Part shown: piece by piece, positions 13,184 through 38,207 of the stretch
How positions within the stretch are numbered: position 1 is the stretch's first letter
Layout: each line of letters begins with the position of its first letter
IMG/VR virus record: IMGVR_UViG_3300044611_002466
Span: 32,001-96,000 of that record
DNA from: a virus
Strand: one strand, 5' to 3'
DNA: 64,000 nucleotides
Notes under the pieces: generated by a model
Database searches by the model: none
What the model was told of the DNA's origin: nothing
Seen by the model: the letters and a program-made list of their open reading frames with translations, nothing else
Program-made: the position numbers and the translations under genes

Positions 13184-14101
13184 ATGGCCCACTTCTACGA
13201 AGTGACAGAGCACTCCCTGCGGGACTTGTCCTCGCGGGCCGTTGCGCTTTGCCGCGGCTCGCATCCTGAAGGGCCGTGCTCTCCGACGGACGCCGTCATC
13301 AAGGTGGCATCCTCGTTCAGCGACGCACAGCTCACGAATGAGCACATCAAGCGCATTTGTGAGATGACGTACCACGGCATCTTCGAGCAGCGCTTCCAGG
13401 ACAGCACTGGCGGAGACCGGATGATCGCCTTCGACCCCCCTGATGCAGAGAAGGCGGCCAGCGCGCTGCGCGTGCGTCGCCTCGACTCCTTCGCGAAGGC
13501 GGCGTCGGCCTCCCCCGGGAGGGTGGAGACGGGGATGAACAAGAACGCGGATGCACCCCGCCGGCTCGGCCCCCCGGCCCTCACCAACGCGTTCAGCGCT
13601 GCCATGGGCACCTTCAAGGCAGACGAGACCGCGATGCGGAAGGAGGCGCTCTCCACACTTCGACACCTCCACGGGCAGTTGAAGGAGGCGACCGCGTCGC
13701 TTCAGGTCGAGGTCTCCACCGCCGACAGCTCCGAGAAGGTGGCCTTCCTGGACTTGCTCGATGGTGCCGTGCACGCCACCCGACAAGGGGCCACCGCGAC
13801 CGAGGTGACCTCGGTCTGTCTCGAGCTCGCCAAGCGGGCTGGGGTCGACGACGAGCTCGTGCTCTCAGGCCTCGCTACCGACCTGCTGCGCGGACTCGAC
13901 CAGCGTGGTGTCCTCCAGCGCGGGGAGAAGGTGGCCAGCCTGAGCGGCTTGTCCGCGAACACGCGCCACCCGCTGTGTGCGAAGGTGGAGAAGGTGGCCA
14001 GCCTCCGGGGCTACAAGCTCCACGGGGAGATCGCGCTACAGGACCTGCGCCAGCAGATGCACCGAGTGGACCAGGAGATGAAGGATGGCCGCTACCGGTA
14101 G
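13184..14101 (+). CDS. K-x-A-rich putative head/core protein
   Basis: 10 of 15 Lys in K-x-A (KVAS x3, KAAS x2, KNAD, KEA x2, KVAF, KRAG). Confidence 0.75.
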   Translation: MAHFYEVTEHSLRDLSSRAVALCRGSHPEGPCSPTDAVIKVASSFSDAQLTNEHIKRICEMTYHGIFEQRFQDSTGGDRMIAFDPPDAEKAASALRVRRLDSFAKAASASPGRVETGMNKNADAPRRLGPPALTNAFSAAMGTFKADETAMRKEALSTLRHLHGQLKEATASLQVEVSTADSSEKVAFLDLLDGAVHATRQGATATEVTSVCLELAKRAGVDDELVLSGLATDLLRGLDQRGVLQRGEKVASLSGLSANTRHPLCAKVEKVASLRGYKLHGEIALQDLRQQMHRVDQEMKDGRYR

Positions 14102-14369
14102 TGCCCCGCAGGGCCCCCTCACGGAGTGGGCAAAGTCCGCTGGTCTCATCTCCGACGGAGCCACCGCGGCCGGCCGCGGCTTGAGCGCGTTGGGCAAAGG
14201 CGTCTGGCGGGCCGCGGGCGTAGCAGCCCCTAACCCCATCGCACGTGCAGGACTCATCGGTGCGAGCGGCCTCGCCCTCAAGACGCAGGTCCCGCAGCTT
14301 GCCGGGCGTGCGACCCAGGACTACCACTACGCCCACGGTACCACTCCAGCTACGAGTCGAGGATTCTGA
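14085..14369 (+). CDS. Small Gly/Ala-rich head-region protein
   Basis: WAKSAG motif, amphipathic segments. Confidence 0.6.
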   Translation: MAATGSAPQGPLTEWAKSAGLISDGATAAGRGLSALGKGVWRAAGVAAPNPIARAGLIGASGLALKTQVPQLAGRATQDYHYAHGTTPATSRGF

Positions 14370-15358
14370 TGGATGCTGCGCTCATCATTGCTTTGGACGG
14401 GGCTTTCGACGAGGGCCGAGGTGGTGCGGCTGAGGTTGCCCGTACCATGAAGTTGGCTGGCATGTTGGGGCTGCAGAAGGAGGCGCTCAATCTCCCGCCC
14501 AGCGTGATGAACGCCCTCGGCAAGCTCGCGCCTTCCGACACGACGCGCAGCGCCGTCATCAACGGGCTCGCGACCAGCGGCGCGATCGGGGCAGCGGGGC
14601 TGGGCACCCGCGCCCTCTTCTCCGGAGCGCGCGCCTTGGGGGAGCGCTTCTCCAAGAAGAAGGACCTCGAGAAGATCCTGGAGACCTTCCCCCGTCTGAA
14701 GGAGTACCCGCGGGCAGAGGTGGAGCTGGCGTACAACTCCATCAGGCACATGAACCCGCACATCGCGGCCGACCCCCTCGCCGGCGGCTCCCTCCTCGGG
14801 CAGGTGTTGCGTCAACGCGACTCGTTGGACCCGAAGACGATGCGAATGGAGGTCGACCTCGCGGGGAACCTGTTGCGCCTCCGTCCCGAGGACCAGCACA
14901 TCGGAGAGGAGATCGTGCGCGACGCCGTGAGCACCGGCATGGCCATGGGGTTCCAAGAGGCCGCCAAAACGCGCGATCGTCAGATGGCGGAGGCATTTCA
15001 GCGCGCCGAGAACAAGCAGAACCGCGACGCTGCGACGGACGCGCAGACGCGTCAGCTGCGCGCCCAGGGCGGCCAGGCGCAGGCCAGCCTGAACCTCAAG
15101 AAGCAGGAGATGGCCAACCGCGCCAAGGAGATGGCCGCCGCGCGTGCAGCGGCCGAGCGGGACTCGAAGACCGAACACGGACGTCGCGTCTCCCTTGCTG
15201 AGCAGATGCAGAAGTTTCAGCGCGACGAGAACATCGACAGCCACGAGAGGCAGGATCGACGCGAGGGCATCAAGGCGACGTTGCGAGGCACCGTCCCCGG
15301 GCCGACCACTCCAACGCTCAATCAGATCCTCGCCAAATACCCCCACCTGCGCCCCTAA
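14369..15358 (+). CDS. Head-region protein with hydrophobic segment and coiled coil
   Basis: KLAG and KEAL motifs; NGLATSGAIGAAGLG segment. Confidence 0.7.
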   Translation: MDAALIIALDGAFDEGRGGAAEVARTMKLAGMLGLQKEALNLPPSVMNALGKLAPSDTTRSAVINGLATSGAIGAAGLGTRALFSGARALGERFSKKKDLEKILETFPRLKEYPRAEVELAYNSIRHMNPHIAADPLAGGSLLGQVLRQRDSLDPKTMRMEVDLAGNLLRLRPEDQHIGEEIVRDAVSTGMAMGFQEAAKTRDRQMAEAFQRAENKQNRDAATDAQTRQLRAQGGQAQASLNLKKQEMANRAKEMAAARAAAERDSKTEHGRRVSLAEQMQKFQRDENIDSHERQDRREGIKATLRGTVPGPTTPTLNQILAKYPHLRP

Positions 15359-17248
15359 ATGGACAAGTACTTCCAGCTCCACGGGAAGGTCGCCGATGGG
15401 CGCCCGCTGATTCACCTGGTGGAACCCGGCTCGAGGTATGGGGCGGGCGAGTCTGCTGGCCTGCAGAAGGTCGCCAACGGGGAGCATCTGCCTGAGGTGC
15501 TGGAGCTCATCGAGGCCATCCAGCCACAGCCGGATCGCATCTACCTCGTAAACAGCGCACTCGGCGCCGGCGAGTACGTGGGCTTCAACCTGCGCGGTGA
15601 CTGGTTCGGGGAGAAGGGCCTGCTCCACACCCCGCCAGGGTGGGATCGGATCCCGGTGTGGGATGTGGAGGCGCGGCGACGCGCGGCGAGTGCGACTGCG
15701 CAGGCCGGAGAGTGGGGCTCCCTGGCGTGGGGCTACCCCACGTTCATGAACGCACACCGGTTTCGCCACCATGTGAACAAGGACCCAGAGAGGGCGTACG
15801 GCTACGTTCTCGGGGCGTTCTGGGACGCACGCATGCACCGCGTGGTCCTGGTCTCCGAGCTGGTCCGCGACATGTGCATGCGCCTGGGCGCAGTGGATCT
15901 CTACGATCGCATCGCTGGCGGGGAGTTCCCCGATACCTCGATGGGCGCGAAGGTGCCGTACGATCGCTGCTCGATCTGCAACCACTACGCACGCTCGCCC
16001 GCAGAGTACTGCCTCCACGTACGTCAGGGCGCACCGCCCCCCTACGGAATGCGTTCGATCCTCCGCGACGGACGCATGTGCGGCGTCTACAACGACTACC
16101 CGCGGTTCTTCGATGACTCGTTCGTCTTCGTGGGGGCGGAGCGGTCGGCCAAGATGCTGGCCAACATCACCTCGCGACTGCGAGGCTCCTACCCCTACAC
16201 GAACCAGCTGTACCAACCGGGGGCGTTCGTCTCGACACGAGACGCCACCGCCGCTGCCGTCACGTCCCCCCTTGATGAGCGCAGCGAGGGGCTGGGCCTC
16301 GCCGTGGCCCGCGTCCTCAACTCCAGGGTACGGGGACCGACGGAAGGTCGAGTGGGTGAGGCCATCTCGCAGGCGCTGTCCGCCTTCCCGACGAAGGACG
16401 ACGCCGAAGCAAAGGCTCTTCGGCATGCCGAGGAGTCCCTGCGTCGACGAGCCGCAGTCACGGATGGCACAGTCTCGGAGGATGAATACAGGTTCTGGGA
16501 GGGCAATGCCTCCAAGGACCTGACCATCACGCACGGGGTAACTACCGCGCAGAGGGACCGGGCGATTGCCCTTCTGCGCTCCCGGATGGATCAGAGCGTC
16601 GAGAAGGTCGGAACGCTGGCAAAATGGGCCACTTTGACGAAGCGGCTGTCCGTACCGAGCGCGGCCCAAAGCGCCCTCCTTCGGGATCATGTGGGCCGGC
16701 TGTCGCCCGTGCTGCCGCAGCAGGTGTACGACGCGTGCAGCTCCTCGGTGCCTGGCATGTGGGGCGGACTGTCCGACCTGTCTGCGCTCGGCGTCGTCCT
16801 TCGTCCGGAGGAGTTCCAGCAGTGTGCGCTGCGTGGAATGGGCGAGGACGCGCTGCAGGAGCGCTGCACGCGGGAGGGACTTCGCTTTCAGAGCACCCCG
16901 CGGGACCCCTACCACGAGCCCCGCTGGATTCCATCCGACCCAAGACCGGGCAATCTACAGCTCCTGACGCGGGCCCTGGGCGCGATGGTTCGGGAGCGCT
17001 CGTTTGCCCCCGCCGTTGTGCAGATGCGCATCCAGGCACCCCCGCCCACTCGAGCCGACAATCCAGGAACCGCCCTGGATCACCCGATCTTGAATCAGGT
17101 GTCTCAGCTGTATAATGACTACCGGATGGGGCTGTTGACGCGGAGCATCCCCCAGGGGTATGTATCGGTGGACGTCCACAGCGCGGGTAAGACCGCTTCG
17201 ACAGCAGAGGCAGTCTCCACTCTCCTCTTCCATCTTGCGTACTGGTAG
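15359..17248 (+). CDS. Prohead (capsid maturation) serine protease, HK97/assemblin fold, with Cys/His insert and long C-terminal extension
   Basis: NLRGDWF, F..AH.F.HH.NKD (His), DTSMG (Ser), CSIC...C.H, FFDDSFV..GA motifs; upstream of MCP. Confidence 0.8.
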   Translation: MDKYFQLHGKVADGRPLIHLVEPGSRYGAGESAGLQKVANGEHLPEVLELIEAIQPQPDRIYLVNSALGAGEYVGFNLRGDWFGEKGLLHTPPGWDRIPVWDVEARRRAASATAQAGEWGSLAWGYPTFMNAHRFRHHVNKDPERAYGYVLGAFWDARMHRVVLVSELVRDMCMRLGAVDLYDRIAGGEFPDTSMGAKVPYDRCSICNHYARSPAEYCLHVRQGAPPPYGMRSILRDGRMCGVYNDYPRFFDDSFVFVGAERSAKMLANITSRLRGSYPYTNQLYQPGAFVSTRDATAAAVTSPLDERSEGLGLAVARVLNSRVRGPTEGRVGEAISQALSAFPTKDDAEAKALRHAEESLRRRAAVTDGTVSEDEYRFWEGNASKDLTITHGVTTAQRDRAIALLRSRMDQSVEKVGTLAKWATLTKRLSVPSAAQSALLRDHVGRLSPVLPQQVYDACSSSVPGMWGGLSDLSALGVVLRPEEFQQCALRGMGEDALQERCTREGLRFQSTPRDPYHEPRWIPSDPRPGNLQLLTRALGAMVRERSFAPAVVQMRIQAPPPTRADNPGTALDHPILNQVSQLYNDYRMGLLTRSIPQGYVSVDVHSAGKTASTAEAVSTLLFHLAYW

Positions 17249-17306
17249 GTAGCCACCATAGTGGCGATAGAAGCCCTCCTCTCTGCGAACACCTCGGAGC
17301 TCCCAG

Positions 17307-18377
17307 ATGAACCCCCTCAGCCAGGCCCTCGAGCAGCACAACATCACCCCCGAGGACCTGGAGAAGGCCGCAGGTGTGCGGATCTTCCAGAAGGTCGCGG
17401 CCGCCGAGGGCATCGACCTCGCCCAGCTCTCCGATGCGCAGATCGAGGAGCTCTTCGCCCACTTCGAGGCCAGCGTCCTTCCGGAGATCGTCGGCGGCGA
17501 GCCCAGCACCGAGGCCAAGGTGGCATCCCTGAGCCAGGAGGAAGTCTTCGACCTCTTCGACAAGCAGGCCGCCGCTGAGGGCCTCGATCTCTCCGACGCC
17601 TCCGAAGAGCAGCTCGTCGCCGCCCTCGGGTACTTCATGGAGAACGTCCTCCCGGCGATGGCCGAGAACGGCTTCGAGCCCGTCGGCGCGGAGAAGAGCG
17701 CGGAGGCCGAGGAGGCCCAGGCCAAGCTCGCCGAGGCCGACATCCTCGGCCGGCAGATGGCGCGCGGCTACATGGACGAGATCGGCAAGATCGCGGGAGC
17801 GGGGGACGCAGCCAAGGCCCTCCTCTCGCGCGGCGCGGCCGCTGTTCGCCAGGGCGGCCACCTGCTCAGCGGGAAGAAGCTCCAGGGTGCCGGTGCCGCT
17901 GCTCTCGGCGCCGGAACGGCCGCTCTCGGTGCCGGTGGTGCGGCCCTCGGCGCCAAGAAGCTGATGGGCAGCAAGAAGGAGGCCGGTGCCCCCGCCCCCG
18001 CCATCTCGCTCAGCGCCGAGGACGTCGAGATCCTGCAGCAGCTCTCGGAGTCCGGGGACCTCGCCGGCCTGCAGAAGGCGGCCGGCATCATCAAGAACGC
18101 GGCCGCGGCGCAGATCGGCTCCGCCAAGCCCGGCATCGGCGAACGCATCCGGGGCGCCGCGTCGCGGGGCGTCGCCCTTGCGCGGGCGCACCCTCGGGCC
18201 GCTGCCGGTATCGCGGTCGGCGGCGCCGCCGCCACCGGTGGCGCCGCCGCCCTCGCTCATCGCATGAAGTCGAAGTCCACGGAGAAGGACGCCAGCGCCG
18301 CCCTTGATGTCCTGGTCGAGGAGCGCGCCGCGGAGCTCGCCTCGGGCTGGCTCACCGACAACGGCTACGGCTCGTAG
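17307..18377 (+). CDS. Scaffold/core-like protein, K-x-A rich, with internal duplication and glycine zippers
   Basis: 11 of 20 Lys in K-x-A; two copies of F.K.AAAEG.DL...S..Q......F...VLP. Confidence 0.75.
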   Translation: MNPLSQALEQHNITPEDLEKAAGVRIFQKVAAAEGIDLAQLSDAQIEELFAHFEASVLPEIVGGEPSTEAKVASLSQEEVFDLFDKQAAAEGLDLSDASEEQLVAALGYFMENVLPAMAENGFEPVGAEKSAEAEEAQAKLAEADILGRQMARGYMDEIGKIAGAGDAAKALLSRGAAAVRQGGHLLSGKKLQGAGAAALGAGTAALGAGGAALGAKKLMGSKKEAGAPAPAISLSAEDVEILQQLSESGDLAGLQKAAGIIKNAAAAQIGSAKPGIGERIRGAASRGVALARAHPRAAAGIAVGGAAATGGAAALAHRMKSKSTEKDASAALDVLVEERAAELASGWLTDNGYGS

Positions 18378-18580
18378 TGATGCTGCCGCTGTCACAGCTG
18401 AGGGTGTTTGCGGGGGAGGTGGGCAAGCTCGCCGGACTCACCACGCACCCAGCCGTGGCAGCGGGCGCAACAAAGCGGTTGCTGGGTTCGACCCCCTCCG
18501 CGCCTACGTCAGGGCTCGCGCAGACGGCCAAGATCACATCTCCCGCGGCCCTCGTTGCTCCTCCCAACACCTTCGCCTGA
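18377..18580 (+). CDS. Small head-region protein
   Basis: Coupled ORF, GKLAG motif. Confidence 0.5.
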   Translation: MMLPLSQLRVFAGEVGKLAGLTTHPAVAAGATKRLLGSTPSAPTSGLAQTAKITSPAALVAPPNTFA

Positions 18581-18590
18581 GGCGTCCGTC

Positions 18591-19841
18591 ATGTCCGTAC
18601 AGCAAATCGTCAACGAGGCCCTGCAGCGCGCACGCTCCACGGCCGGAGGCGGTACCGGTACCGCTGCCACCAAGACCGCTTCGGCCGAGGACGCCCTGAT
18701 CAAGACGGCGCATCAGCTGGCGGACGCCAACGAATGGATCGCGCTCAGTGCGGCCGACGACGGCACCGCTGGCGGACGAGCCCGCCGAGGGCTCGTCGAG
18801 AACTTCTTCAAGAGTGCCGGAGGCGAGAAGGTCCCCGGCCCGGTGCAGAGCGAGTCTCCCACCGGCACCCAGGCGGTGCCTCCGCAGTCTGGCGCGAAGA
18901 AGATCCTGCCGCTCGGCAAGGCCAGCGGTGACTCCCCGGAGGAGTCGGGTGCGCCGACCGGCACCCAGGCCACTCTGGACCAGACCGGCACCAAGAAGGC
19001 CGGCATGACGCTGCTGGACGCGATCACCAAGAGCGCGGACACGTCGGCCATTCCCGGCCCCAAGCAGAGTGTGGCCGGCGAGAACGCCGCGGCCCCGCCG
19101 CCGAAGAACGAGAACACCAACATCGGTGCCCTTCGCTCTGCTGAGGGAATGGTCTCCATGACGCGGAGGGAGGCGAAGGCCCCCACGCGAGATCGCCTGA
19201 AGCAGCTCTTCGCCCACGCCGGAGACACCGGCCCCTCGAGCGCCGCGGCCCAGGCCGCCTTCCCCAACGCCTACGCCAAGGGAGGGATGAAGGAGGCAGC
19301 CGCCGACCCGCGTGACGCGATCGACGACAAGCTGCTCGGTGAGTCCAAAGCCTCCATGCGGGAAAGCGGCATCAAGGCCGTGAACACGGCCGGTCATGCC
19401 GGTCGTGGGGCGGTCCATGGTGCCTTGGGCGGGGCCGCTGGCGGAATCCTGGCTGGCAGTGGCGTCGGTCTTGGCGTTGGCGCCCTTGGCGGCGCCCTCT
19501 CCCAGGGCGCTCGTGCACGTGGCGGTCTGGGCAGTCGTCTTGCCGGCGCTGGCCTCGGGGCCCTTGTCGGCGGGGCCGCCGGCGGGGTCACTGGAGGCAT
19601 GATCGGTGCCGTGCCCGGGGGCCTTGCGGGCGGTATCTCTGGCGGCATCAGCGGGCATCGAGCCGGTCAGCGAGAGCAGCGCGCCATGGATGCCGCCGAA
19701 GCCGCTCACGAGAAGCTCGATGCACGCGAGAAGAAGGCCTCCGTCTCCGACTACGCCAAGCTCGCCTCCCTCGCGGAATCTGGTAGCCTCGGTGACGCGG
19801 CTCGAGAGCTGATCCGCTTCGCGGATGGCCTCGTCACCTGA
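18591..19841 (+). CDS. K-x-A-rich protein with long glycine zipper
   Basis: KTAS, KTAH, KSAG, KKAG, KSAD, KEAA, KKAS, KLAS; GxxxG tract at about 19400-19660. Confidence 0.75.
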   Translation: MSVQQIVNEALQRARSTAGGGTGTAATKTASAEDALIKTAHQLADANEWIALSAADDGTAGGRARRGLVENFFKSAGGEKVPGPVQSESPTGTQAVPPQSGAKKILPLGKASGDSPEESGAPTGTQATLDQTGTKKAGMTLLDAITKSADTSAIPGPKQSVAGENAAAPPPKNENTNIGALRSAEGMVSMTRREAKAPTRDRLKQLFAHAGDTGPSSAAAQAAFPNAYAKGGMKEAAADPRDAIDDKLLGESKASMRESGIKAVNTAGHAGRGAVHGALGGAAGGILAGSGVGLGVGALGGALSQGARARGGLGSRLAGAGLGALVGGAAGGVTGGMIGAVPGGLAGGISGGISGHRAGQREQRAMDAAEAAHEKLDAREKKASVSDYAKLASLAESGSLGDAARELIRFADGLVT

Positions 19842-20074
19842 TGCTGTCCCAACTCCTCCAGACCATCGAGAAGCGCGCGGGTACGGACCCCCAGGCTGCT
19901 GCGTTTCGCGCGCTCTCGGTACTCCCCAAGGCGGCGTCGGCCGATGATCTCTCCGTGGAGACGGACGAGGAGGGACGGGCACGCCGAGTGGGAGAGTTCT
20001 TGCGCCGACGCAACTCGAGCGGGCTGTTGAACGGTTCCGCCTCCCCCACACCCCCGAAGGACACCGCTCCATGA
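19841..20074 (+). CDS. Small head-region protein
   Basis: KRAG and KAAS motifs; coupled. Confidence 0.6.
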   Translation: MLSQLLQTIEKRAGTDPQAAAFRALSVLPKAASADDLSVETDEEGRARRVGEFLRRRNSSGLLNGSASPTPPKDTAP

Positions 20075-20445: not shown

Positions 20446-20449
20446 ATCC

Positions 20450-20478: not shown

Positions 20479-20504
20479 AGGGACAGCCCCTTCGCGAGGA
20501 CACC

Positions 20505-21100: not shown

Positions 21101-22267
21101 ATGAGCATGATCGAAGGCGCTGGCTCCGCCGGAGCCATGAATGCCGGCTTCATTGAGCGGCTCGAAAGCGACGGGGCGACCAAGTGCGCCGCGCAGAGCC
21201 TCAACTTCATCCGGGACCGCATCCGCGAAGGGTGCTTCACGGACATGATCATCCCGAACGAGCGTGTCGTGCGCGGCGATCTGCAGCGCTCCACCGAGCA
21301 CGACGGCCTCGTGCGGATCGTGGACATCGAGCCCGGCTCCCGGGCGATGGCGTGCACCTTCCGCGGGCAGCCCGAGACCACCTACGTCTCCGGCAAGCGC
21401 TTCGCGATCGGCTTCTCCACCGTCTCGAGTCTCAAGTTCGAGATCGTCGAACAGGAGCTCATGGCCTACGAGATGCCGGTGACGCGCATCATGGAGGAGA
21501 ACTCCCTCAAGGACATGGTGGAGGTCAAGGACCGCACCTTCCTGGGCCACACCGAGACCTCCGTGGAGGCCATGCAGGAGGAGGCCAACGGCTCCGTTGT
21601 CGGCTTCAACACCAGCAACGTGAACGCGGGAACCTGTCTCGAAGTCTCGAAGGTCAAGGGGTCCATGGCCCTCCAGATGGCCTCCGACAACTTCGTCGTC
21701 AAGGCGATCCAGCGCCCGGACATCGTCAAGATCAAGCGCCTCCTGAAGCGCGTGATCACCGACGGCTCCGGGAACATGGTCCGGCGTGGCCGCCTGCGCC
21801 CCGAGGTCATGCTCGCCTGCGAGTCGGACATCGACGAGTTCGACTCCTGGACGCACGAGGACCTGGGCTCCAAGCTGCAGTCCGAGACCATGGTGGACGG
21901 CTGGAGCTACGCCAAGGCGATCGGCCTGCGCATCGTGAAGACGATCAAGAACGACCTCCTCCGGGAAGGGAACATCTACGTCTTCACCAGCGCGCAGTAC
22001 TTCGGCCGGAACTATACGTTGAATGACGTGAAGTTCTACATCGACAAGGTCGCGAACCGCATCTCGTGGCAGGCGTGGATGGACATCGGCATGGGCATCG
22101 CGAACATCGCCTCGGTGGTGAAGCTCGAGCTCTACTCCGGGTCCGTCACCACCGGAGACACCGACAGCGGCTACGCCGCTGCCATCCCGGTGGAGATCGA
22201 AGACATGGGCGGGGTGAACAACAAGGTGGCCGAGGGCCTCACCTTCCCGCACATCTCCCTCTACTGA
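21101..22267 (+). CDS. Major capsid protein (HK97 fold)
   Basis: EQELMAYEMPVTRIMEENSLKDMVEVKDRTFL backbone-helix pattern; size, position, strong SD and downstream terminator. Confidence 0.85.
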   Translation: MSMIEGAGSAGAMNAGFIERLESDGATKCAAQSLNFIRDRIREGCFTDMIIPNERVVRGDLQRSTEHDGLVRIVDIEPGSRAMACTFRGQPETTYVSGKRFAIGFSTVSSLKFEIVEQELMAYEMPVTRIMEENSLKDMVEVKDRTFLGHTETSVEAMQEEANGSVVGFNTSNVNAGTCLEVSKVKGSMALQMASDNFVVKAIQRPDIVKIKRLLKRVITDGSGNMVRRGRLRPEVMLACESDIDEFDSWTHEDLGSKLQSETMVDGWSYAKAIGLRIVKTIKNDLLREGNIYVFTSAQYFGRNYTLNDVKFYIDKVANRISWQAWMDIGMGIANIASVVKLELYSGSVTTGDTDSGYAAAIPVEIEDMGGVNNKVAEGLTFPHISLY

Positions 22268-22281
22268 GGACGGTCGGGGTG

Positions 22282-24131: not shown

Positions 24132-24902
24132 ATGGAGACCCCCTGGACCACCCGAGTCTCGCTCGAGCACCGCATCGCTGCGGCCGACCTGTGGATGGAG
24201 TTCACGGGCCGCAAGAATGCGTCCGCCCCGGGGTCCATCAAGGAAGCAAACGGCGACATGGTCGCGGACCAGAAGGCGCCCAGCCGCGGCCTCGGGGCCC
24301 CGGCACGCGGAGCTCTCGCCGGAGGGGTAACGGGTGCGGGTCTCGCGGGGGTCGCGACGCACTACGCCAACAAGGGACTTGCGGCGGGAGCTCCACGCAT
24401 CTCGCGTGGCTTGGCTGCGCTCGGAGGCGGGACTGTTGGCGCGGGGGTTGGGGCTACGCTCGGGGCGGGCTACCTCATCCACAAGGCGATGAAGGCACAC
24501 ACTGACGCGTCGACGAAGACAGGATCCGCCGCCGAGTCGATGCTCGTGTACCTGCGCTCCCACCCGCGTGCCGCCGCCGCCGTTGGCGCCGCCCTGCTTG
24601 CCACGCCAGCAGCGGCAGGGGGGTACCTCCACGAGAAGGCCCGGCACACGGCCGGCGGAGGCGGGAAGAGCAAGTACGAGATCGACAACGCCCTGGAGCT
24701 GGAGAAGCACCGAGCTCACACGGAGCACGCGGGCACGGACTCCGCCGTGTCGAAGTTGAAGGAGAAGTACCTGCGCATGAAGGAGCGAGCAGGGGTGGAG
24801 GCACGGGAAGATCCTCGCCGCGCTGCTCTCTACGGGGCTCTGCCGTACGGACTGCTCGCGGGGACGACTGGCGCCACGCTCGTACCCCGGCTGCTTCGGT
24901 GA
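24132..24902 (+). CDS. K-x-A protein with four glycine-zipper/hydrophobic segments
   Basis: KNAS, KEAN; GALAGGVTGAGLAG, GLAALGGGTVGAGVGATLGAG and others. Confidence 0.7.
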   Translation: METPWTTRVSLEHRIAAADLWMEFTGRKNASAPGSIKEANGDMVADQKAPSRGLGAPARGALAGGVTGAGLAGVATHYANKGLAAGAPRISRGLAALGGGTVGAGVGATLGAGYLIHKAMKAHTDASTKTGSAAESMLVYLRSHPRAAAAVGAALLATPAAAGGYLHEKARHTAGGGGKSKYEIDNALELEKHRAHTEHAGTDSAVSKLKEKYLRMKERAGVEAREDPRRAALYGALPYGLLAGTTGATLVPRLLR

Positions 24903-25789
24903 GGTTCACCGGCCTACAGGTATCCGGCTTCAGCCGGCGCTATCACGACATCGACTGGGAGATCGCGCCCACCCACGATGACATGCAGGAGTGGGAGTTC
25001 TTCGTCGAGCGCTCCGAGTCCGAGGCGGGGCCCTGGCTCACCATCGCCGGCCCCATCATCGACCGCTACTACGTGCGGGACAACACGACTCCGCAGATCT
25101 CCATCAACCGCACGCTCTTCTACCGAGTGCGCGCAGAGAACCGCTCCCGCGGCCTCAACGCGGTCTCCCCCGTAGCGGATCGCGAGGGGTCTCCGGACCT
25201 CATCGCGGTTGAGATTGCGAGCCTGGAGCACCTCCTCTTCACGGAGTTTACCGGGACGCGCTCGTGGCTGTTCACCCGGCGTACGTTCGGGCAGCGATGT
25301 CCGCAGTGCTGGGACGATGTCCTCTCCAAGGTCACCGACGACTCGTGCCCCACGTGCTTCCGAACGGGCTTCTCTGGGGGGTACCACTACCCGATCGAGT
25401 TTTACGCCCAGTTTGACCGGAGCCCGTCGGTCGAGAACCTGACCACGTTCGACCACCACCAGCTGAACACGCAGACGTTTCGGTGCACGGCTTCTCCGAA
25501 GATCACGCCGTCATCGCTGATCATCGACCACAAGAACCAGCGGTTTCGGGTGATCGCGGTCTCATGTACGTCGCGCCTCGGTGTTGGTGTGCACCAGGAA
25601 GTGCAGGTAGCGCAGCTCCAGCCCGGCTCGATCGAGGACGCCATTGAGCTGAAGGTCGAACACCGTGGGCTGGCGCTGGCTGGGCCACGGAACTACACAA
25701 ACCCGCAGAACGTAGAGGCTGCAGGCTCCTCGGCCAACTCGCCGGAGCTGGACGCGCTACTGGCGGGCTACGGGTACAGCGATGCGTGA
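24899..25789 (+). CDS. Probable head-closure/neck protein with N-terminal Ig-like region and CxxC..CxxC insert
   Basis: GQRCPQCWD...CPTCFRTGFSGGY; position between adaptor and tail terminator. Confidence 0.65.
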   Translation: MRFTGLQVSGFSRRYHDIDWEIAPTHDDMQEWEFFVERSESEAGPWLTIAGPIIDRYYVRDNTTPQISINRTLFYRVRAENRSRGLNAVSPVADREGSPDLIAVEIASLEHLLFTEFTGTRSWLFTRRTFGQRCPQCWDDVLSKVTDDSCPTCFRTGFSGGYHYPIEFYAQFDRSPSVENLTTFDHHQLNTQTFRCTASPKITPSSLIIDHKNQRFRVIAVSCTSRLGVGVHQEVQVAQLQPGSIEDAIELKVEHRGLALAGPRNYTNPQNVEAAGSSANSPELDALLAGYGYSDA

Positions 25790-26210
25790 CAACGAGCTCC
25801 TCGATCGGATGCGCGACCAGCCTGGGTACAAGAAGTACCAGGAGGCCGCCGCGAAGACCCCGCGCTCGCAGTACCCGTGGGGGACGCTCCTCGCCAACGT
25901 GGGAGGGATCGCAGTCGCGCATACGGCCGGGTACGTCAGCGCCGGTGCGCTCGCCTCGCTCCTCGCGTCGTCCCGTGTGGGGGAGCGCTTCGCGCGGCTC
26001 CCCCACACGACGCAGCTCAACGCCATCGCACACGCGGTCTCGATCGCAGGCTCCGTCGGGGTGGTTGCATCCGGCTTGGCGCGCATCGCGGGGCAGCTAC
26101 GAGTCGCCGAGGAGATCTCCCGCATGGAGAAGGAGCGCGCGGCGGCGTCGAGTGAGAAGGTCGCCTCGGTCTACTTCGTGTACGAGCAGGCGCTCCGAGC
26201 GCTCCAGTGA
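25782..26210 (+). CDS. Two-hydrophobic-segment protein ending in a KVAS-flanked tail
   Basis: Hydrophobic helices; SEKVAS. Confidence 0.65.
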   Translation: MRDNELLDRMRDQPGYKKYQEAAAKTPRSQYPWGTLLANVGGIAVAHTAGYVSAGALASLLASSRVGERFARLPHTTQLNAIAHAVSIAGSVGVVASGLARIAGQLRVAEEISRMEKERAAASSEKVASVYFVYEQALRALQ

Positions 26211-31504: not shown

Positions 31505-31528
31505 CCCCCGACCCTCTGCGGAGCCCAC

Positions 31529-32902: not shown

Positions 32903-32908
32903 GATAAC

Positions 32909-32939
32909 GAAGGGGGCGGGCAGTGTGCCCGCCCCCTTC
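32909..32939. other. Perfect 14-bp hairpin before the tail tube gene
   Basis: GAAGGGGGCGGGCA-GTG-TGCCCGCCCCCTTC, no U-tract. Confidence 0.75.
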
Positions 32940-32976
32940 ACATCGAACATCGCTCCCCAAGCAGGAAGGCAGCATC

Positions 32977-33678
32977 ATGGCGACCGTCTCAAACTGGAGC
33001 CCCTACGACCAGTTCGTCCAGGGGGGTATGGTCGATGGGCGTTACATGAACGCGGCTTACACGCTCATCGCCGCGGGCCCTCCCCGCTTGGCGAACGTGG
33101 GAGGGCCCGCGTTCCTGGCGGCGGCGTTCGCCGCGGGGAGCTCCGCCGCCGATCAGATCGCCTACCCGATCGGGGTGGTGCAGAGCTTCTCTCTTGGCCA
33201 CTCGATGCAGCTCAACAGGTTCTTCGAGCTGGGCTCTGAGCGGAGCTACGTCGTCCCCGGCCGCGTGATGGGCCAGCTCTCGCTGTCGCGCATCATGTAC
33301 CACGGACCCTCGCTGCTGCGCGTCCTCTACGCGTACTACCAGGACCTCGTCCCGAAGACGGTCATTCCGGCCCTGTTCGCGAACGTGGGCGCCGGCACCG
33401 TGGCCAACCCCCACGACGTCGTCATCCCTCCTGGATACGAGAACGTCTACTTGAACCTGGCCTCGGACTTGTTCAAGCAGCCCATGGGACTGCTGACCAT
33501 GTTCAAGGACTCGAACGAGGACACGATGGCCGCGTACTACTTCGAGAGCTCCTACGTCTCGAACCACTCTCTTGCGACCGACGCGATGGGCACGGTCATG
33601 CAGGAGCAGGTGGGCGTCCAGTTCGAGCGCATGATCCCCATCGCTACCAAGGTCGTCGGCCTCATCAGCGGCCTGTAG
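32977..33678 (+). CDS. Tail tube protein
   Basis: IGVVQSFSL..S.QLNRFFELGS...Y.VPG tube motif; downstream of sheath. Confidence 0.8.
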   Translation: MATVSNWSPYDQFVQGGMVDGRYMNAAYTLIAAGPPRLANVGGPAFLAAAFAAGSSAADQIAYPIGVVQSFSLGHSMQLNRFFELGSERSYVVPGRVMGQLSLSRIMYHGPSLLRVLYAYYQDLVPKTVIPALFANVGAGTVANPHDVVIPPGYENVYLNLASDLFKQPMGLLTMFKDSNEDTMAAYYFESSYVSNHSLATDAMGTVMQEQVGVQFERMIPIATKVVGLISGL

Positions 33679-33688
33679 GGGGCCCTGA

Positions 33689-36106
33689 ATGTTGTCCGCC
33701 TCGAGCTCTGCGGGGCATCGCGTCCCCCTACCTCCGCGTGCTGTTGCCGGGGGGCGCATCTTCGCCGAGCTCGGGACCAAGCTCGCGGACCTGATGCCCG
33801 CTCCGACGCAGCCGAGCTCGGCCCTTCGCCCTGGCGTGGAGTTCCGTCCCCACCAGGAGGACGCCATCCAGAAGGCCATGCGGCAGAACGGCAACCTGCT
33901 GCTGAGCCACCCAGTCGGCTCCGGCAAGACGGTCACGGCCATCGGCGCGTTCGAGCGGCTGCGGCAGGCAGGGAGGGCCACGCGGGCCCTCATCGTGACC
34001 CCGGCCTCCCTGCGGAAGAACTTCACCGACGAGGGAGTGCACAAGTTCACGACGGACCACTGCACCGTGTTCGGCAACGCCCAGGAGGTGGCCGCGGGTC
34101 AGGGCCGAGCTCTCGACAACCCGGACCCCGACTCCCGCTACCACGTGGTCAGCTACGACCTCTTCCGCGCGGCCCCCGAGGCGTACATCAAGGCCTCTGG
34201 GGCGGACACCGTCATCTACGACGAGCTCCACAAGATCAAGAACATCGGTGCCACGGGCAAGGCGCTGAAGGACGCCAGGAAGTTCCACCGGAACTTCATC
34301 GGCCTCACGGGCTCCATCGTCAGCAACACCCCTGCCGACCTGGTACCGCTCATCGACGCCATGACGGACGGGAAGCATCACCTGGGCACCAAGGAGAACT
34401 TCGAGCGGAGGTTCATGACCGACGACGGGAAGCTGCAGAACACGCCCATCGTGCGGATGTTGTTGAACCCCTACATCCACCACGTCGACGCCGCGGCGAG
34501 CTCCGGCAACATGCCGGTGAAGGAGACGGAGACCATCAAGGTCGACATGTCCCCCGAGCAGCGCGAGCTCTACCAGTACGTCGTGGGGAGGATGGATCCG
34601 GTCACCGCGCTGAAGTTCCGCTTTGGCACGTCGAAGCTGAAGACCAACGACGTCAACAACATCTTCAACAAGATGACCCAGGCGAGGCAGGTCTCCAACG
34701 CCATCCACACGGTCAACAAGTCGGTGACGCTCTCTGAGAGTGCAGAGCGCTCTCCGAAGATTCGGAAGATCCTGGACGACGTGGAGGACCACCTCAGGGA
34801 CACGCCAGACGGCCAGGTCATCATCTACTCGAACATGATCCACGGCGGCCTCGACGTCATCGGGCAGGGCCTGCGCGACCGCGGCATCGACCACGGGATC
34901 TTCATGGGCAAGGGCCAGCCCGGGTCCACCGAGAAGAGCCGGACGCAGGCGGTCTCGGACTACCAAGCTGGCAAGAAGAAGGTCATCCTCCTCTCCTCCG
35001 CCGGTGGCGAGGGGCTGAACCTCGGCAACACGACCTTCGTGGCCAACGTCGATGGACACTTCAACCCTGAGAAGATCCACCAAGCAGAGGCCCGCGGTGT
35101 GCGCGCCGGCGGGCAGGCCCACCGCGCCCAGGCCGATCGCAAGGTCATCGTCAGGCGCTACGTCACGAGGGTCCCGCTCTCGACGTCGACGGTCCTCAAG
35201 GACACGATGAACCTCGTCGCGCCCAGCCAGATCATCACGCGGGCCCTGGAAGGGCAGCCGGTGTTCTACAACCCCCTGAAGAGGGAGCGGTCTCCGGACG
35301 AGTGGGCTTACGAGGTCGCAGGGCTAAAGGACGAGCGGAACAAGGCTCTCCGCGGCAACCTCGACAAGTCGGCTGAGCAGGTGCCGGACAGCGTCGAGGA
35401 CATGTTGGACCTCCTCGAGGCAGGCGTTGTCGCGCGAGCGGAGGACCGAGCACTGCCGCTGGTGAAGGAGGCCGTTGCGAAGGTGGACCACAAGGAACGG
35501 CGGATGGCCGCCGACCGCATTCCGATGCAACCGCACCGGCTCGTCAAGTCCGACCGCGTCGTGATGAACGCGTACATGAAGGAGTTCTCCCCCCACCTCG
35601 AAGAGGCCACGGACCCGGCCACGGTCGCGCTCCCCGCGGACAAGCAGCTGCGCGAGCAGGAGTACATCGCTGCGCTCCGGGCCTACTACCGGGAGGCAGC
35701 CAAGGGAGGCGGTACCGGACTGTCGAAGGCCACGACAGACGAGGAGCGGAAGAAGGAGGTGTGGCGCAATGCCGCGCTCGCCGGAGGCATCGGAACCGTC
35801 TGGGGCGGTACGCAGGGCACAGTTCAGGCGGTGGCCGGCGGCCTGCCCCTCACACACTCGCTGATGTTTGGCGCGGGGACGGCCGCCCTCCTCGGCGGTA
35901 CCTTCGGTGGCATGACCCTCTGGGATGGGATGCGCAATCCCGCCTACAGCACTCCCGCCACGCGTGCCAGGAAGACCGGCAAGCTGACCGACGCTCAGAT
36001 GGTACAGCTCCTCCGCGGCCTGGAGGTGCAGCAGAAGGAGGAGAAGACCCACCGATTCGCCGTAGGATCCACTCCTCGGGCTACCACTACTACCCTCCCT
36101 TCTTGA
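33689..36106 (+). CDS. SNF2-family helicase/ATPase with K-x-A sites and hydrophobic C-terminal tail
   Basis: FRPHQ, GSGKT, DELH, LTGS, SSAGGEGLNL, QAEARGVR motifs. Confidence 0.9.
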   Translation: MLSASSSAGHRVPLPPRAVAGGRIFAELGTKLADLMPAPTQPSSALRPGVEFRPHQEDAIQKAMRQNGNLLLSHPVGSGKTVTAIGAFERLRQAGRATRALIVTPASLRKNFTDEGVHKFTTDHCTVFGNAQEVAAGQGRALDNPDPDSRYHVVSYDLFRAAPEAYIKASGADTVIYDELHKIKNIGATGKALKDARKFHRNFIGLTGSIVSNTPADLVPLIDAMTDGKHHLGTKENFERRFMTDDGKLQNTPIVRMLLNPYIHHVDAAASSGNMPVKETETIKVDMSPEQRELYQYVVGRMDPVTALKFRFGTSKLKTNDVNNIFNKMTQARQVSNAIHTVNKSVTLSESAERSPKIRKILDDVEDHLRDTPDGQVIIYSNMIHGGLDVIGQGLRDRGIDHGIFMGKGQPGSTEKSRTQAVSDYQAGKKKVILLSSAGGEGLNLGNTTFVANVDGHFNPEKIHQAEARGVRAGGQAHRAQADRKVIVRRYVTRVPLSTSTVLKDTMNLVAPSQIITRALEGQPVFYNPLKRERSPDEWAYEVAGLKDERNKALRGNLDKSAEQVPDSVEDMLDLLEAGVVARAEDRALPLVKEAVAKVDHKERRMAADRIPMQPHRLVKSDRVVMNAYMKEFSPHLEEATDPATVALPADKQLREQEYIAALRAYYREAAKGGGTGLSKATTDEERKKEVWRNAALAGGIGTVWGGTQGTVQAVAGGLPLTHSLMFGAGTAALLGGTFGGMTLWDGMRNPAYSTPATRARKTGKLTDAQMVQLLRGLEVQQKEEKTHRFAVGSTPRATTTTLPS

Positions 36107-36146
36107 GGGACATCGCCGACGGGCGCGTCGAGTTACAGGGAGGCCC

Positions 36147-38207
36147 ATGTCTGAACTACCCCCCTCCGTAGAGCGAGCCATCGGTACCACCGTGCACTGG
36201 GCCGCCTTCGCGGACGAGCTCGGGAAGCAGGCTGCCGTGGTGGAGGTCGCACACAACTTCCACCCCGTCGTCGTGCAGCCTCCGCGGGCGAAGCGTGCGA
36301 AGTTCCCCTTCACTGGCTTTATCGACTTCCAGGGCATCAAGATCGACGTCGAGAACAAGAAGGGCGAGTACCGCCGCGGGAAGGACAAGGACGGGCACGA
36401 GTGGAAGTGCCTGATGCACTCGCACTACGGCGAGATCCGGGACACGGAGGGCACCGACGGCGACAAGCTCGACGTCTACGTTGGCCCCAACCACGACTCG
36501 AGCTTGGTCGTGGTCGTTCGACAGCTCAAGCCAGACACAGGAGCCTTCGACGAAGACAAGGTGATGCTCGGGTACGACTCAGTGGAAGAGGCCATCGGAG
36601 CCTATAAGAAGCAGTATGACAAGCCTGGCTTCTACAAGGACGGTGGCCACAAGGTGATGCCGATCGGTGAGTTCTGGCGGTGGGTGCACGACCGCGAGAA
36701 CTACGGCAAGAAGGTGGCTGGATTCCTACATGACCTGACCGGCAGAAGTCTGGACGAGGCGCGCAAGGCGCACGTGCGTAGGGTGGAAGAACACAATGCC
36801 CACCTGCAGGGCGCGATCCGCGACTACGACGAGATGCGTGACTTGGTGGAGCAGTCAGCCCGATGGAAGTCGACGAGGCTTGGGAGGCACCGCAAGCGCC
36901 TTGCCGACGCCGCCAAGTCCGTCGAGCGTATTGCGGCCCTGGCTCCTCCGCATTTCGACCCCTCTCCGATCGCCAGGAGGATCCGAAACACGCGTCTCGG
37001 CACCGCGGCTGTTCTCGGTGGGGGCGCGTTGCTCACGGGGCTTGCCGCGCACCGTCACAGACAACCCGAGGCGAAGAAGGCGGCGGCCCCCCTGGACGCG
37101 GGGGTGCGAGAGTTCGCCCTGCACCCTCGTCTCCAGAAGGCGCTGGGTGGTGTAGCCGCCGCCGGAGGCCTGTACGCGGGGTACAAGTACCGCCAGCGGG
37201 AGCGCCTGAAGGAGCTGGAGTCCGGCACGCCCAGTATGGGCAGACACGCGCTGGAAGGAGGAGCAGCGGGCGTCCTCGCAGGCGCGAGTCTCGGCGGAGC
37301 AGCGGTACACAAGGCCAAGCCCGTGCTCGCGCGGATGCGGGACCTTACTGCACCAGTCGCGGCAGCTATGACAGAGAGCGCCAAGACGATGCGGAACTCG
37401 GGGATGTCCCCGGAGAAGATCAAGCAGACCGTTCTCCAGAACCCCGTGTCCGTCAAGGGACTGCACGTGGCGCGAGCAGGGCATGCGGCGCACCTGCTCC
37501 ACGGGAAGCTCAGTGTCGGGAGGGGTGCCCTGGCAGGCGCAGCCATCGCTGGTATTGCTGGCGCCGGGCTCGCGGCACGCGGCGCACGCGGAGACGAGGC
37601 GAAGGCTGACCTCCGCGGAGAGCAGCGACGGCTCAAGCGCGGCCCGTACGCCCAGCCTAAGGAGGCCGGTGCGAGCCCCCTCTCTGCGGCGGGGACTGCT
37701 ACTCCCAGCGGCCTCGTAGCACGGAACAAGATGCAGAAGACGGCGCCCCCGCACTACACCCCACCGCCTGCTGCCGTACAGGTCGCGCCCTCGCCGTGGA
37801 CAAAGGGAGCGGACGCTGAGCTGCCCGGCGTCGGTGACGAGGGAGAGCGGCCGCACATCCCTGGGATGAAGCAGCCTCGCCTGGCCACTCCACGCCTGAA
37901 CCCCGACCAAGGGAAGCACATCCCCACGAACCCCTTCCGCGGCAGCTGGAAGAAGCTGGGAGGCGGTCCCTTACACGAGGTCGCCGAGGTGGCGCACCAC
38001 TTGACCGCTGCGATCCCTGAGAAGGTGAAGCACGGCATCCTGGGCGCTGGCATCTTGGGCGCGGGGGCCCTGGGGCTAAAAGCAACCGCCGACCAGGTGG
38101 TCAATCCCCGCCCTGAGGGGGTTGGCTTAGGCGCTGGAGCGCGAGCCGGCCAGAAGGCTCTGACTCTTGGGCTCTCGCGGGCTGGATCGGGGCCCGTGCA
38201 GTATTAG
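36147..38207 (+). CDS. Polyprotein: inorganic-pyrophosphatase-like (InPase-type) domain plus multiple glycine-zipper modules
   Basis: IDVEN.KG..R.G.D..G..W...M..HYG.I..TEG.DGD.LDVYVGP...FDEDKVMLG; K-x-A sites between modules. Confidence 0.8.
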   Translation: MSELPPSVERAIGTTVHWAAFADELGKQAAVVEVAHNFHPVVVQPPRAKRAKFPFTGFIDFQGIKIDVENKKGEYRRGKDKDGHEWKCLMHSHYGEIRDTEGTDGDKLDVYVGPNHDSSLVVVVRQLKPDTGAFDEDKVMLGYDSVEEAIGAYKKQYDKPGFYKDGGHKVMPIGEFWRWVHDRENYGKKVAGFLHDLTGRSLDEARKAHVRRVEEHNAHLQGAIRDYDEMRDLVEQSARWKSTRLGRHRKRLADAAKSVERIAALAPPHFDPSPIARRIRNTRLGTAAVLGGGALLTGLAAHRHRQPEAKKAAAPLDAGVREFALHPRLQKALGGVAAAGGLYAGYKYRQRERLKELESGTPSMGRHALEGGAAGVLAGASLGGAAVHKAKPVLARMRDLTAPVAAAMTESAKTMRNSGMSPEKIKQTVLQNPVSVKGLHVARAGHAAHLLHGKLSVGRGALAGAAIAGIAGAGLAARGARGDEAKADLRGEQRRLKRGPYAQPKEAGASPLSAAGTATPSGLVARNKMQKTAPPHYTPPPAAVQVAPSPWTKGADAELPGVGDEGERPHIPGMKQPRLATPRLNPDQGKHIPTNPFRGSWKKLGGGPLHEVAEVAHHLTAAIPEKVKHGILGAGILGAGALGLKATADQVVNPRPEGVGLGAGARAGQKALTLGLSRAGSGPVQY

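Follow-up and report, generated by a model that had tools for sequence, protein, structure and literature searches.

About two dozen glycine-zipper helices are spread over proteins encoded in the head and neck region of an uncultured tailed phage (188-kb genome, 65% GC), and we tentatively interpret their carriers as proteins that are packaged and probably cleaved by a protease, with zipper helices that may enter the host membrane once the proteins are ejected. The window analyzed here comprises 64,000 nucleotides (positions 32,001 to 96,000 of IMG/VR record IMGVR_UViG_3300044611_002466), and every gene located below lies on its + strand. An earlier sequence-only reading had named nine open reading frames of this region as carriers of such helices. 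Eight of them (1-1371, 14369, 17307, 18591, 24132, 25782, the C-terminus of 33689, and 36147, each designated by its start) do contain uncharged, Gly/Ala-rich segments of 17-52 residues, a segment being defined as an uncharged run of at least 17 residues with small-xxx-small spacing. The exception is a Gly/Ala-rich basic protein of 94 residues (14085..14369), a weak case in which hydrophobic stretches reach only 11 residues and whose orthologs occur in only three loci.

First, it is necessary to ask whether these segments are anything more than low-complexity, Gly/Ala-rich linkers that are tolerated, with no specific role, in the fast-evolving proteins of a GC-rich genome. The base composition of the phage, the poor conservation of the segment sequences themselves, for which few homologs are detectable, and the confinement of zipper tails among the wider InPase homologs to G/A/R/P-rich proteins all favor this explanation, which we nevertheless consider improbable. 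The head block holds 19 strict-definition segments versus 2.97 expected from per-protein shuffles, a six-fold excess confined to this block; outside it, the genome has 8 versus 6.66 expected. Glycine autocorrelation reaches 1.34 at lag 4 and 1.46 at lag 8, versus 0.64-0.75 at lags 2, 3, and 6, the periodicity of a helical zipper, and the residues directly flanking the segments comprise 35 Lys/Arg versus 3 Asp/Glu. A belt of His, Tyr, or Trp marks the ends of 9 of the 22 window segments and of 86 of the 244 segments of relatives, versus an interior frequency of 7%; amphipathicity does not exceed that of shuffles. Periodicity, basic flanks, and end-belt argue for selection, and AlphaFold2 returns helices, not coil. 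Moreover, the position and architecture of the zippers are conserved in 38 related viral contigs of 47-68% GC, recovered as loci with 36-88% identity to the major capsid protein (21101..22267) that served as bait, and the helicase tail hairpin described below persists in one further contig at 41% GC. Zipper density is unrelated to GC content among these relatives (r = 0.16), although the 38 loci are mutually related and conservation statistics are thereby inflated.

Second, the carriers share a genomic setting and a candidate processing signal. The virion module is of the contractile-tail type: its sheath matches phrog_279, a tube and a protease are present, and its capsid protein is a relative of the major capsid protein of the cultured Salmonella phage Arash (tblastn, 24% identity, E = 2e-19). 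The putative prohead protease (15359..17248; 629 aa; phrog_18299 head maturation protease, E = 5e-5) is an ortholog of Arash gp222 (BLASTP E = 3e-30) and is present in 38 loci. A Lys-x-Ala motif is common to the zipper proteins, the capsid, and the scaffold-like proteins, and its sequence pattern probably marks prohead-protease sites. Matches to K-x-A[S/A/G] reach a density of 4.7 per 1000 aa in the head block versus 1.3 elsewhere, and zipper proteins are favored over other proteins as carriers of K-x-A by an odds ratio of 12.6. The idea that the zippers are embedded between such sites holds for 17307 and 18591, whose modules have sites on either side; 24132 and 25782 have them on one side only, and it fails for the SNF2 protein (33689..36106), in which no strict K-x-A[S/A/G] occurs.

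The layouts of the individual proteins vary considerably around this theme. The gene at 1..1371, whose start lies 908 nt before the window, encodes a Dps-like protein of 759 aa (C-terminal 456 codons in the window; Pfam Ferritin PF00210, 31.8 bits; NCBIfam Dps-type matches under cut-off), comprising an N-domain, an Ala/Pro linker, three zipper helices (nt 205-273, 448-498, and 586-678), the Dps/ferritin-like domain, and K-T-A-S 14 residues before the end. The 329-aa product of 14369..15358 has an N-terminal helix, a K-L-A-G site, one zipper helix (nt 14549-14608), and a conserved domain; it has orthologs in 19 loci, and Arash gp221 is one of its orthologs (BLASTP E = 1e-5, with gene order ahead of the protease gene also shared). 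The scaffold-like protein at 17307..18377 (356 aa, nine K-x-A sites) has an acidic, repeat-bearing N-half, and its basic C-half contains a pair of zipper helices (nt 17880-17954 and 18198-18260); the peptide quoted from it previously is found at residues 192-216 plus KK. Across its orthologs (31 loci) the N-half is conserved and a short C-terminal zipper ending in Tyr/His recurs, down to 47% GC. The 416-aa protein at 18591..19841 consists of a conserved N-domain (~240 aa), K-E-A-A, a double zipper tract, K-K-A-S, and a conserved C-terminal motif. Its glycine tract, previously put at about 85 aa and positions 19400-19660, spans 84 aa at nt 19407-19658 (34 Gly, 16 Ala, 3 Arg), consists of two helices (35 and 40 aa) separated by an Arg-rich break, uses Gly codons as the capsid and sheath genes do, and matches the Gly-zipper_Omp profile at a sub-threshold 14.9 bits. 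In relatives of this protein (29 loci), the zipper module is missing, expanded, or carried on a separate downstream gene.

Farther downstream, a basic protein (+12; 256 aa; 24132..24902) follows a short N-domain and a K-N-A-S site with four zipper helices (nt 24309-24371, 24408-24482, 24570-24632, and 24822-24887), and its positional orthologs, lying between the same two conserved neck genes, have from zero to seven such helices, the seven being in contig L019 (47% GC). The 142-aa product of 25782..26210 reads as a basic N-terminus, a zipper helix (nt 25866-25973), a basic loop, a second zipper helix (nt 25998-26081), a charged helix, K-V-A-S, and a 13-residue tail, a layout that aligns over 15 positional orthologs. 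AlphaFold2 models it as all-helical (pLDDT 79; helices 33-63 and 75-121), its segments forming long helices at pLDDT 69-93. Several carriers are enzymes of delivery type: in addition to the Dps-like protein, there are an SNF2 helicase (805 aa; Pfam SNF2-rel_dom and Helicase_C) and an InPase-domain protein (36147..38207; 686 aa; Pfam InPase PF18823, 131.8 bits, residues 57-180). The helicase, which shares an orthologous core with gp217, a helicase of the Arash virion (E = 3e-51), has a C-terminal two-helix zipper hairpin (nt 35768-35923; helix-turn-helix in AlphaFold2, at low confidence); a conserved basic and Leu-Arg-Gly motif comes after it, and the zipper tail is kept in contigs L040, L042, L043, and L044 (41% GC). 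The InPase-domain protein (+31 overall) has a basic tail in which four or five zipper helices lie (nt 36996-38078); close orthologs retain this zipper tail, but of 120 wider InPase homologs only 20 have one. The domain type itself is predicted to be virion-packaged and injected (PMC5512222).

Third, how membrane-like are the segments? The description of them as membrane-type sequence is borne out only marginally by Kyte-Doolittle and Hessa scores; they are not classical transmembrane helices. The best 19-residue windows score 1.0-1.7 on the Kyte-Doolittle scale, with one at 2.2, and the summed Hessa dG is positive in all segments (+1.7 to +6.4 kcal/mol). The segments thus score far below the phage's own classical transmembrane helices, which are rich in Leu, Ile, Val, and Phe and all belong to small accessory proteins elsewhere, so that co-translational insertion is unlikely. 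This bears directly on the proposal that the helices tether proheads or an initiation complex to the cytoplasmic membrane of the producing cell during assembly. T4 head assembly starts on the membrane, and this general precedent, together with weakly hydrophobic helices, is all that speaks for such anchoring; no zipper protein begins with a hydrophobic anchor or signal-like start, the modules sit on many cargo proteins and not on a portal or initiator protein, and with the shortfall in hydrophobicity this leaves the proposal little probability, slightly less than we grant to neutral linkers. A lipid layer inside the capsid, spanned by the helices, has nothing in its favor apart from the hydrophobic segments, and it is very unlikely: sheath, tube, protease, and Arash-related capsid denote a contractile-tailed phage, we know of no internal membranes in such phages, no lipid-handling gene was found in this one, and Arash was described as an ordinary myovirus from electron microscopy. 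Among the three options offered by the sequence-only reading, an ejected conduit or pore is plausible and has the most support, though solely by analogy.

Fourth, comparison with known systems lends shape to this ejection reading. The same detector finds two C-terminal Gly-rich segments in P22 gp7, one in P22 gp16, two in T7 gp14, and three in T7 gp16 (two of these three inside published transmembrane regions), with Kyte-Doolittle scores of 0.9-1.4 and Hessa values of +2.8 to +7.5, in the same range as those of the window phage. P22 gp7, gp20, and gp16 and T7 gp14, gp15, and gp16 form a trans-envelope DNA channel (PMC8954989, PMC10883804). Like the window proteins, they are encoded next to head-completion genes and have weakly hydrophobic helices; they are nonetheless soluble and packed in the head, as we propose for the window proteins. 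The resemblance is one of kind, as no sequence homology of the zipper proteins to any known ejection protein family was detected, and the window phage differs in its contractile tail, its far more numerous segments (~25 on 8-9 proteins), flanks that are nearly all basic, several enzyme carriers, and the linkage of modules to a putative protease motif. Bacterial glycine-zipper domains (Gly-zipper_Omp PF13488, YMGG PF13441, Rick_17kDa_Anti PF05433) share the GxxxG-type repeats and helical hairpins broken by basic residues; however, scores fall under curated cut-offs, the genetic context is unrelated, and the Atlas look-alikes are weak. In T4, internal proteins (IPI-III, Alt) are loaded into the prohead via a capsid-targeting sequence and trimmed by the gp21 protease at a short motif, a logic like that proposed for the window cargo. 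The T4 targeting peptide is a short N-terminal tag, and to our knowledge T4 cargo has no hydrophobic zipper modules. Cargo loading and prohead-protease trimming in T4 are also cited in PMC5512222. In phiKZ, a large myophage that packages its own RNA polymerase, many head proteins undergo cleavage at a short motif by the prohead protease and accompany the DNA into the host, where this cargo associates with host-derived lipid (the EPI vesicle) early in infection (bioRxiv 10.1101/2024.03.24.586471); the window phage differs in its cleavage motif and in having no PF12699 match.

These comparisons also frame an assembly role without any membrane, in which helices in the prohead would pack by their glycine faces and so assemble or connect a scaffold, core, or inner-body-like mass, or else signal the loading of cargo enzymes, the basic flanks later touching DNA. 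We regard this as the main rival, somewhat less probable than the ejection reading. In its favor, the modules sit on the scaffold-position proteins 17307 and 18591 just upstream of the capsid gene and on nearly every putative cargo protein, enzymes included, co-occur with K-x-A sites, and are of marginal hydrophobicity. Against it, the same scan finds no segments in the P22 coat, scaffold (gp8), and portal, and neither zippers nor hydrophobic runs in the phiKZ inner-body and injected head proteins gp90-gp99, which agrees with the earlier remark that this is more membrane-type sequence than a head normally needs. A variation of 0-7 copies per ortholog, with some lacking the module, would be odd for an obligatory loading signal, and the basic flanks and His/Tyr end-belt are, as a sequence feature, a membrane-interface signature. 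The ejection reading has its own counterpoint in that no requirement for a podovirus-style ejectosome is known among contractile-tailed phages. Arash gp217 is without the zipper tail. Zippers are missing from 100 of the 120 InPase homologs and from the phiKZ injected head proteins; thus, the modules are not needed for cargo delivery generally.

Finally, packaging of the zipper proteins inside the head is supported indirectly by the virion proteome of Arash, a distant member of the same lineage with K-x-A-rich head proteins and basic, zipper-rich proteins in the same neighborhood. Mass spectrometry of its virions includes the zipper-rich gp213, gp221, and gp224, whose zipper features the Arash paper does not mention, together with gp217 and gp222, orthologs of the SNF2 helicase and of the protease, respectively. 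The 116 listed proteins likely include contaminants and the coverage values seem unreliable, which makes detection weak proof of packaging; furthermore, Arash has fewer zipper segments, its gp217 has no zipper tail, and no single window protein can be shown to be an ortholog of gp213 or gp224. Cleavage, ejection, and membrane insertion we infer. In the ejection mechanism that we tentatively prefer, the zipper proteins would be packed in the phage head, their modules forming alpha-helices 17-40 residues long that bear a single glycine face and are too weakly hydrophobic for insertion during translation and would therefore leave the proteins soluble and packageable. After exit via the tail, the glycine faces would bring the helices together, and the helices would enter the cytoplasmic membrane of the host, with the Arg/Lys flanks and His/Tyr ends at the lipid interface and the inside-negative membrane potential possibly helping. 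Once inserted, they may line or extend an entry channel for DNA and proteins, or tether co-injected enzymes at the site of entry.

The source of the window is a large contractile-tailed phage, represented by a single contig of 188,230 bp at 65% GC, of which the window covers bases 32001–96000. Its capsid protein shares 24% identity with the Arash major capsid protein, Arash being a distantly related cultured Salmonella phage, and its sheath and protease-like genes match phrog_279 and phrog_18299, respectively. The head module runs from ORF 14369 (ORFs are named by their first nucleotide in the window) through the protease-like ORF 15359, the scaffold-like ORF 17307 and ORF 18591 to the capsid gene 21101, an order kept in 38 loci and in Arash. 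In lying next to the genes for the putative protease and the capsid, the head-module proteins resemble protease-processed internal head proteins of the T4 IP and phiKZ inner-body type. Because a tape measure serving as a conduit was to be weighed, we looked for one: the genes 3′ of the tube gene gave no tape-measure PHROG match, and large structural-looking genes at genome 143–157 kb and elsewhere gave no PHROG match of any kind. Downstream of the tube gene lie the SNF2 helicase (ORF 33689) and InPase (ORF 36147) proteins; window positions 32977–38400 hold the tube gene, then these cargo genes, then a switch of coding strand, with no tape-measure or chaperone gene there. The zipper proteins of the window were themselves set aside as candidate tail tape-measure proteins, having no profile match to a tape-measure family.

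Zipper segments, by which we mean uncharged, Gly/Ala-rich helical stretches with small-xxx-small spacing, are concentrated in the head block. Defined strictly, as an uncharged run of at least 17 residues, at least half of them Gly, Ala, Ser or Thr, with two or more small-xxx-small-xxx-small matches and a Hessa sum of no more than 7 in the best 19-residue window, they number 19 in the plus-strand head block versus 2.97 expected from per-protein shuffles; in the remaining 48,000 residues of the proteome there are 8 versus 6.66 expected. The sequences quoted in the earlier sequence-only reading reappear on translation of the ORFs it named, among which ORF 14085 is the one weak case as a zipper carrier, and the Gly tract it put at about 85 aa and 19400–19660 exists, measuring 84 aa at nt 19407–19658 in ORF 18591. 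This tract is 40% Gly, an Arg-rich break interrupts it, and in its choice of Gly codons it matches the capsid and sheath genes. Within the segments, Gly positions correlate at lags of 4 and 8 and anti-correlate at lags of 2, 3, and 6, which is the mark of a glycine-faced helix and not of silk-, collagen- or coil-type low complexity, and helical amphipathicity shows no excess over shuffles. The bounding residues are Lys/Arg in 35 cases and Asp/Glu in 3, set against 447 K/R and 384 D/E in the whole proteins. His, Tyr or Trp occurs among the last four residues of 9 of 22 segments in the window and 86 of 244 in relatives, the figure for interior positions being 7%.

That composition by itself accounts for the segments appears quite improbable. 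Across 38 viral contigs recruited by their capsid protein (36–88% identity, 47–68% GC), zipper density in the head modules does not track GC (r = 0.16), and the segments are not a GC artefact. Among 120 InPase homologs, 20 carry segments (45 versus 2.6 expected), and all 20 belong to the proteins richer in G/A/R/P; the idea of zippers as a general InPase feature was dropped, since 100 of the 120 lack a segment and the low-G/A members are mostly without any hydrophobic runs.

The zipper modules are modular, shuffled, selected sequence. The conservation p-values are overstated, the relatives not being independent samples. In the slot of ORF 25782, flanked by the same two conserved neck genes, almost all relatives encode a protein of 97–160 aa comprising a basic N-terminus, a zipper helix, a basic loop with an M-S-P-x-x-R-K core, a second zipper helix and a charged helix, often ending in a K-[TV]-A-S site and a short tail. 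For ORF 24132 positional orthology was used, because a sequence search matched only 3 relatives; in many relatives this slot holds a conserved N-domain, usually a K-x-A site, and then 0–7 zipper helices. Seven are found in L019, a contig at 47% GC (L019:13097–14281), where they lie in tandem-duplicated units with K-K-E-A-[AS] joints, an arrangement suggesting that the units may be released as separate peptides. In about 30 loci, members of the 17307 and 18591 families retain the N-terminal domains, and their C-terminal zipper modules have been lost, have grown into 50-residue tracts (at 54% GC too), or have become a separate downstream gene. The Gly-tract module, fused to 18591 in the window, stands as its own gene just downstream in L011:8248–8922, L007:8209–8751 and L005:6916–7668, and a near-C-terminal stretch of the L011 gene resembles the end of ORF 18591. 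The two-helix tail of the SNF2 protein and the motif after it are kept in four further contigs, one of them at 41% GC. The SNF2 ortholog at L042:3899–7816 (IMGVR_UViG_3300013121_000019) is 1305 aa long and has, in the helicase N-terminal region, an intein-like insert of about 500 aa that starts with Cys and ends with His-Asn followed by Thr.

The putative prohead-protease motif K-x-A[S/A/G] is 3.7-fold denser in the head block (4.7 per 1000 aa) than elsewhere (1.3), and it also occurs near the capsid N-terminus both in the window phage and in Arash (Arash residue 27). Genome-wide it is carried by 14 of 18 zipper proteins versus 37 of 170 others, a comparison confounded by protein length. The proposal that the zippers lie between such sites fits 17307 and 18591, which have them on both sides, and fits 24132 and 25782 on one side only. 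Arash head proteins bear the motif repeatedly, with 7 sites in gp220, 6 in gp223 and 5 in gp225 (L001 14494–19451, 19965–20888), and Arash gp222 and ORF 15359 have in common an F-R-H-H-V-N-K-D-P motif. The protein in the scaffold position contains an internal repeat within its acidic N-half (window 17307–17800), two copies of A-A-A-E-G-[IL]-D-L ... V-L-P with a K-x-A site before each. About 38 kb past the window end and outside the head block, genome 134139–136149 encodes two more K-x-A proteins with a zipper-type segment; in the 443-aa polyprotein there, the module that follows the third K-x-A joint consists of this segment.

The best windows of the head-block segments score 1.0–1.7 on the Kyte–Doolittle scale (one 2.2), with summed Hessa ΔG of +1.7 to +6.4, so that of the membrane-type helices once proposed there remain marginally hydrophobic segments and not classical membrane helices. 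The classical helices of this phage, rich in Leu/Ile/Val/Phe with Hessa values of at most 1.5, are all confined to small accessory proteins elsewhere in the genome, and the head-block segments are thus a separate class. Anchoring of these proteins in the producing cell's membrane during assembly seems very unlikely, and an internal lipid layer extremely so.

The same detector, applied to P22, T7, and phiKZ sequences from public records, finds two adjacent Gly-rich zipper segments at the C-terminus of P22 gp7 and one in gp16, and two in T7 gp14 and three in gp16, two of the latter within published TM regions, all in the same marginal score range as those of the window proteins (for the roles of these ejection proteins, see PMC8954989, PMC10883804). 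It finds none in the P22 coat, scaffold, and portal, and none in phiKZ gp90–gp99, inner-body or injected proteins that are protease-processed, injected, and associated with a lipid vesicle (bioRxiv 10.1101/2024.03.24.586471); a sequence-feature analogy to the latter was therefore abandoned. The window proteins do have the weakly hydrophobic, Gly/Ala-rich helices of podovirus ejection proteins, and the controls make this feature like theirs in kind, and not one general to heads or to RNA-polymerase-packaging myophages. Homology is another matter: the nine ORFs have no Pfam or PHROG match to the podovirus ejection families (T7 gp14/15/16, P22 gp7/20/16), and the window proteins no Pfam match to the phiKZ internal head protein domain PF12699. 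No family library places the zipper modules. The glycine-zipper families PF13488, PF13441, and PF05433 did not reach the curated threshold in Pfam searches at relaxed E-values (the best, Gly-zipper_Omp, scored 14.9 bits where 25 is required, with E = 0.026, and did so solely in the 18591 tract), NCBIfam returned no glycine-zipper match, and look-alikes of 24132 in the ESM Atlas (scores about 0.8, TM below 0.5) are leads only. A full-text literature search found no relevant account of glycine zippers in phage virions.

The published mass-spectrometric virion proteome of Arash lists gp213, gp217, gp220–gp225, and the capsid protein, with gp217 among the most abundant, which is supportive and not conclusive, because the 116 entries include enzymes that could be contaminants. 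Among these proteins, gp217 is the ortholog of the window SNF2 core (E = 3e-51), gp222 that of ORF 15359 (E = 3e-30), and gp221 that of ORF 14369 (E = 1e-5), with the same architecture and gene order, and gp224 (net charge +21) and gp213 (+11) are both basic and rich in zippers; such features go unmentioned in the Arash paper. The window proteins include polyvalent-type effector domains (Iyer et al., 2017), namely a phage-type InPase in 36147 (PF18823, 131.8 bits) and an SNF2 helicase in 33689 (SNF2-rel_dom, 64.1 bits; also matching phrog_62 and the DarB-like phrog_10089). This InPase domain type is described as restricted to phage polyvalent proteins, with packaging and injection predicted, in a paper that makes no mention of hydrophobic modules (PMC5512222). 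Its homologs (window 36147–36700, proteins P0005–P0124) form a shuffled fusion family, with Ferritin, SNF2, MuF, topoisomerase I, poly(A) polymerase/LigT, AAA_33, and DnaJ domains among the partners. Pfam and PHROG detected no MuF/portal-type head-incorporation domain on the window proteins; PF04233 is present on some distant InPase homologs.

Taken as a whole, the analysis is most coherently, if tentatively, read as packaged proteins whose zipper helices act on the host membrane after ejection. The proteins would be packaged into the prohead, probably with trimming at K-x-A; their helices would have the hydrophobicity needed for entering a bilayer as oligomers and too little of it to be captured by the membrane-insertion machinery during synthesis. 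After ejection, basic flanks and aromatic ends could position them in the cytoplasmic membrane, where they may form or extend an entry channel or tether injected enzymes. The same helices might, as a possible but doubtful reading, work within the capsid by driving packing or the loading of cargo, a role that computation does not separate from action on the membrane. AlphaFold2 models the 25782 protein, from 15 positional orthologs, as all-helical (mean pLDDT 79), its two zipper segments lying within long helices 33–63 and 75–121; Foldseek found no PDB match for this model at E ≤ 0.001, an unsurprising outcome for a helical hairpin. For the SNF2 tail the model is a helix-turn-helix about an invariant proline, at low confidence, and with a mean pLDDT of 58 it is not taken as packing evidence.

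It is also conceivable, although unlikely, that zipper hairpins are a lineage-specific means of planting co-injected enzymes, namely the SNF2 DNA translocase, the pyrophosphatase, and the Dps-like DNA-binding protein, in the host's cytoplasmic membrane at the point of entry. A membrane-sited SNF2 motor could then help draw in the 188-kb genome, and the zipper peptides, present in mass, could reshape host lipid into an early compartment that protects both the genome and the packaged RNA polymerase, much as the EPI vesicle does in phiKZ-like phages but made from quite different proteins. Whatever probability these several readings leave over belongs to explanations that we have not thought of.

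The principle of weakly hydrophobic helices on ejected proteins is already known. Undescribed are the number of the zippers, the basic residues that frame them, the association with a putative protease motif, the occurrence in a contractile-tailed lineage, and the fusion with SNF2, InPase, and Dps-like enzymes; zipper modules joined to delivery-type enzymes are an architecture absent from the polyvalent-protein literature. How DNA crosses the cytoplasmic membrane in contractile-tailed phages is poorly understood, and this lineage must pass a very large packaged RNA polymerase as well. Podoviruses answer with a set of ejected proteins bearing weakly hydrophobic helices, and the zipper proteins form a conserved set of candidate counterparts in a clade of ~180-kb phages that is widespread and has hardly been studied. 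With Arash, on Salmonella, as the one member of this clade in culture, the question can be tested on material that already exists. Should they prove to act within the capsid, the modules would represent a new type of element for loading cargo or building a core.
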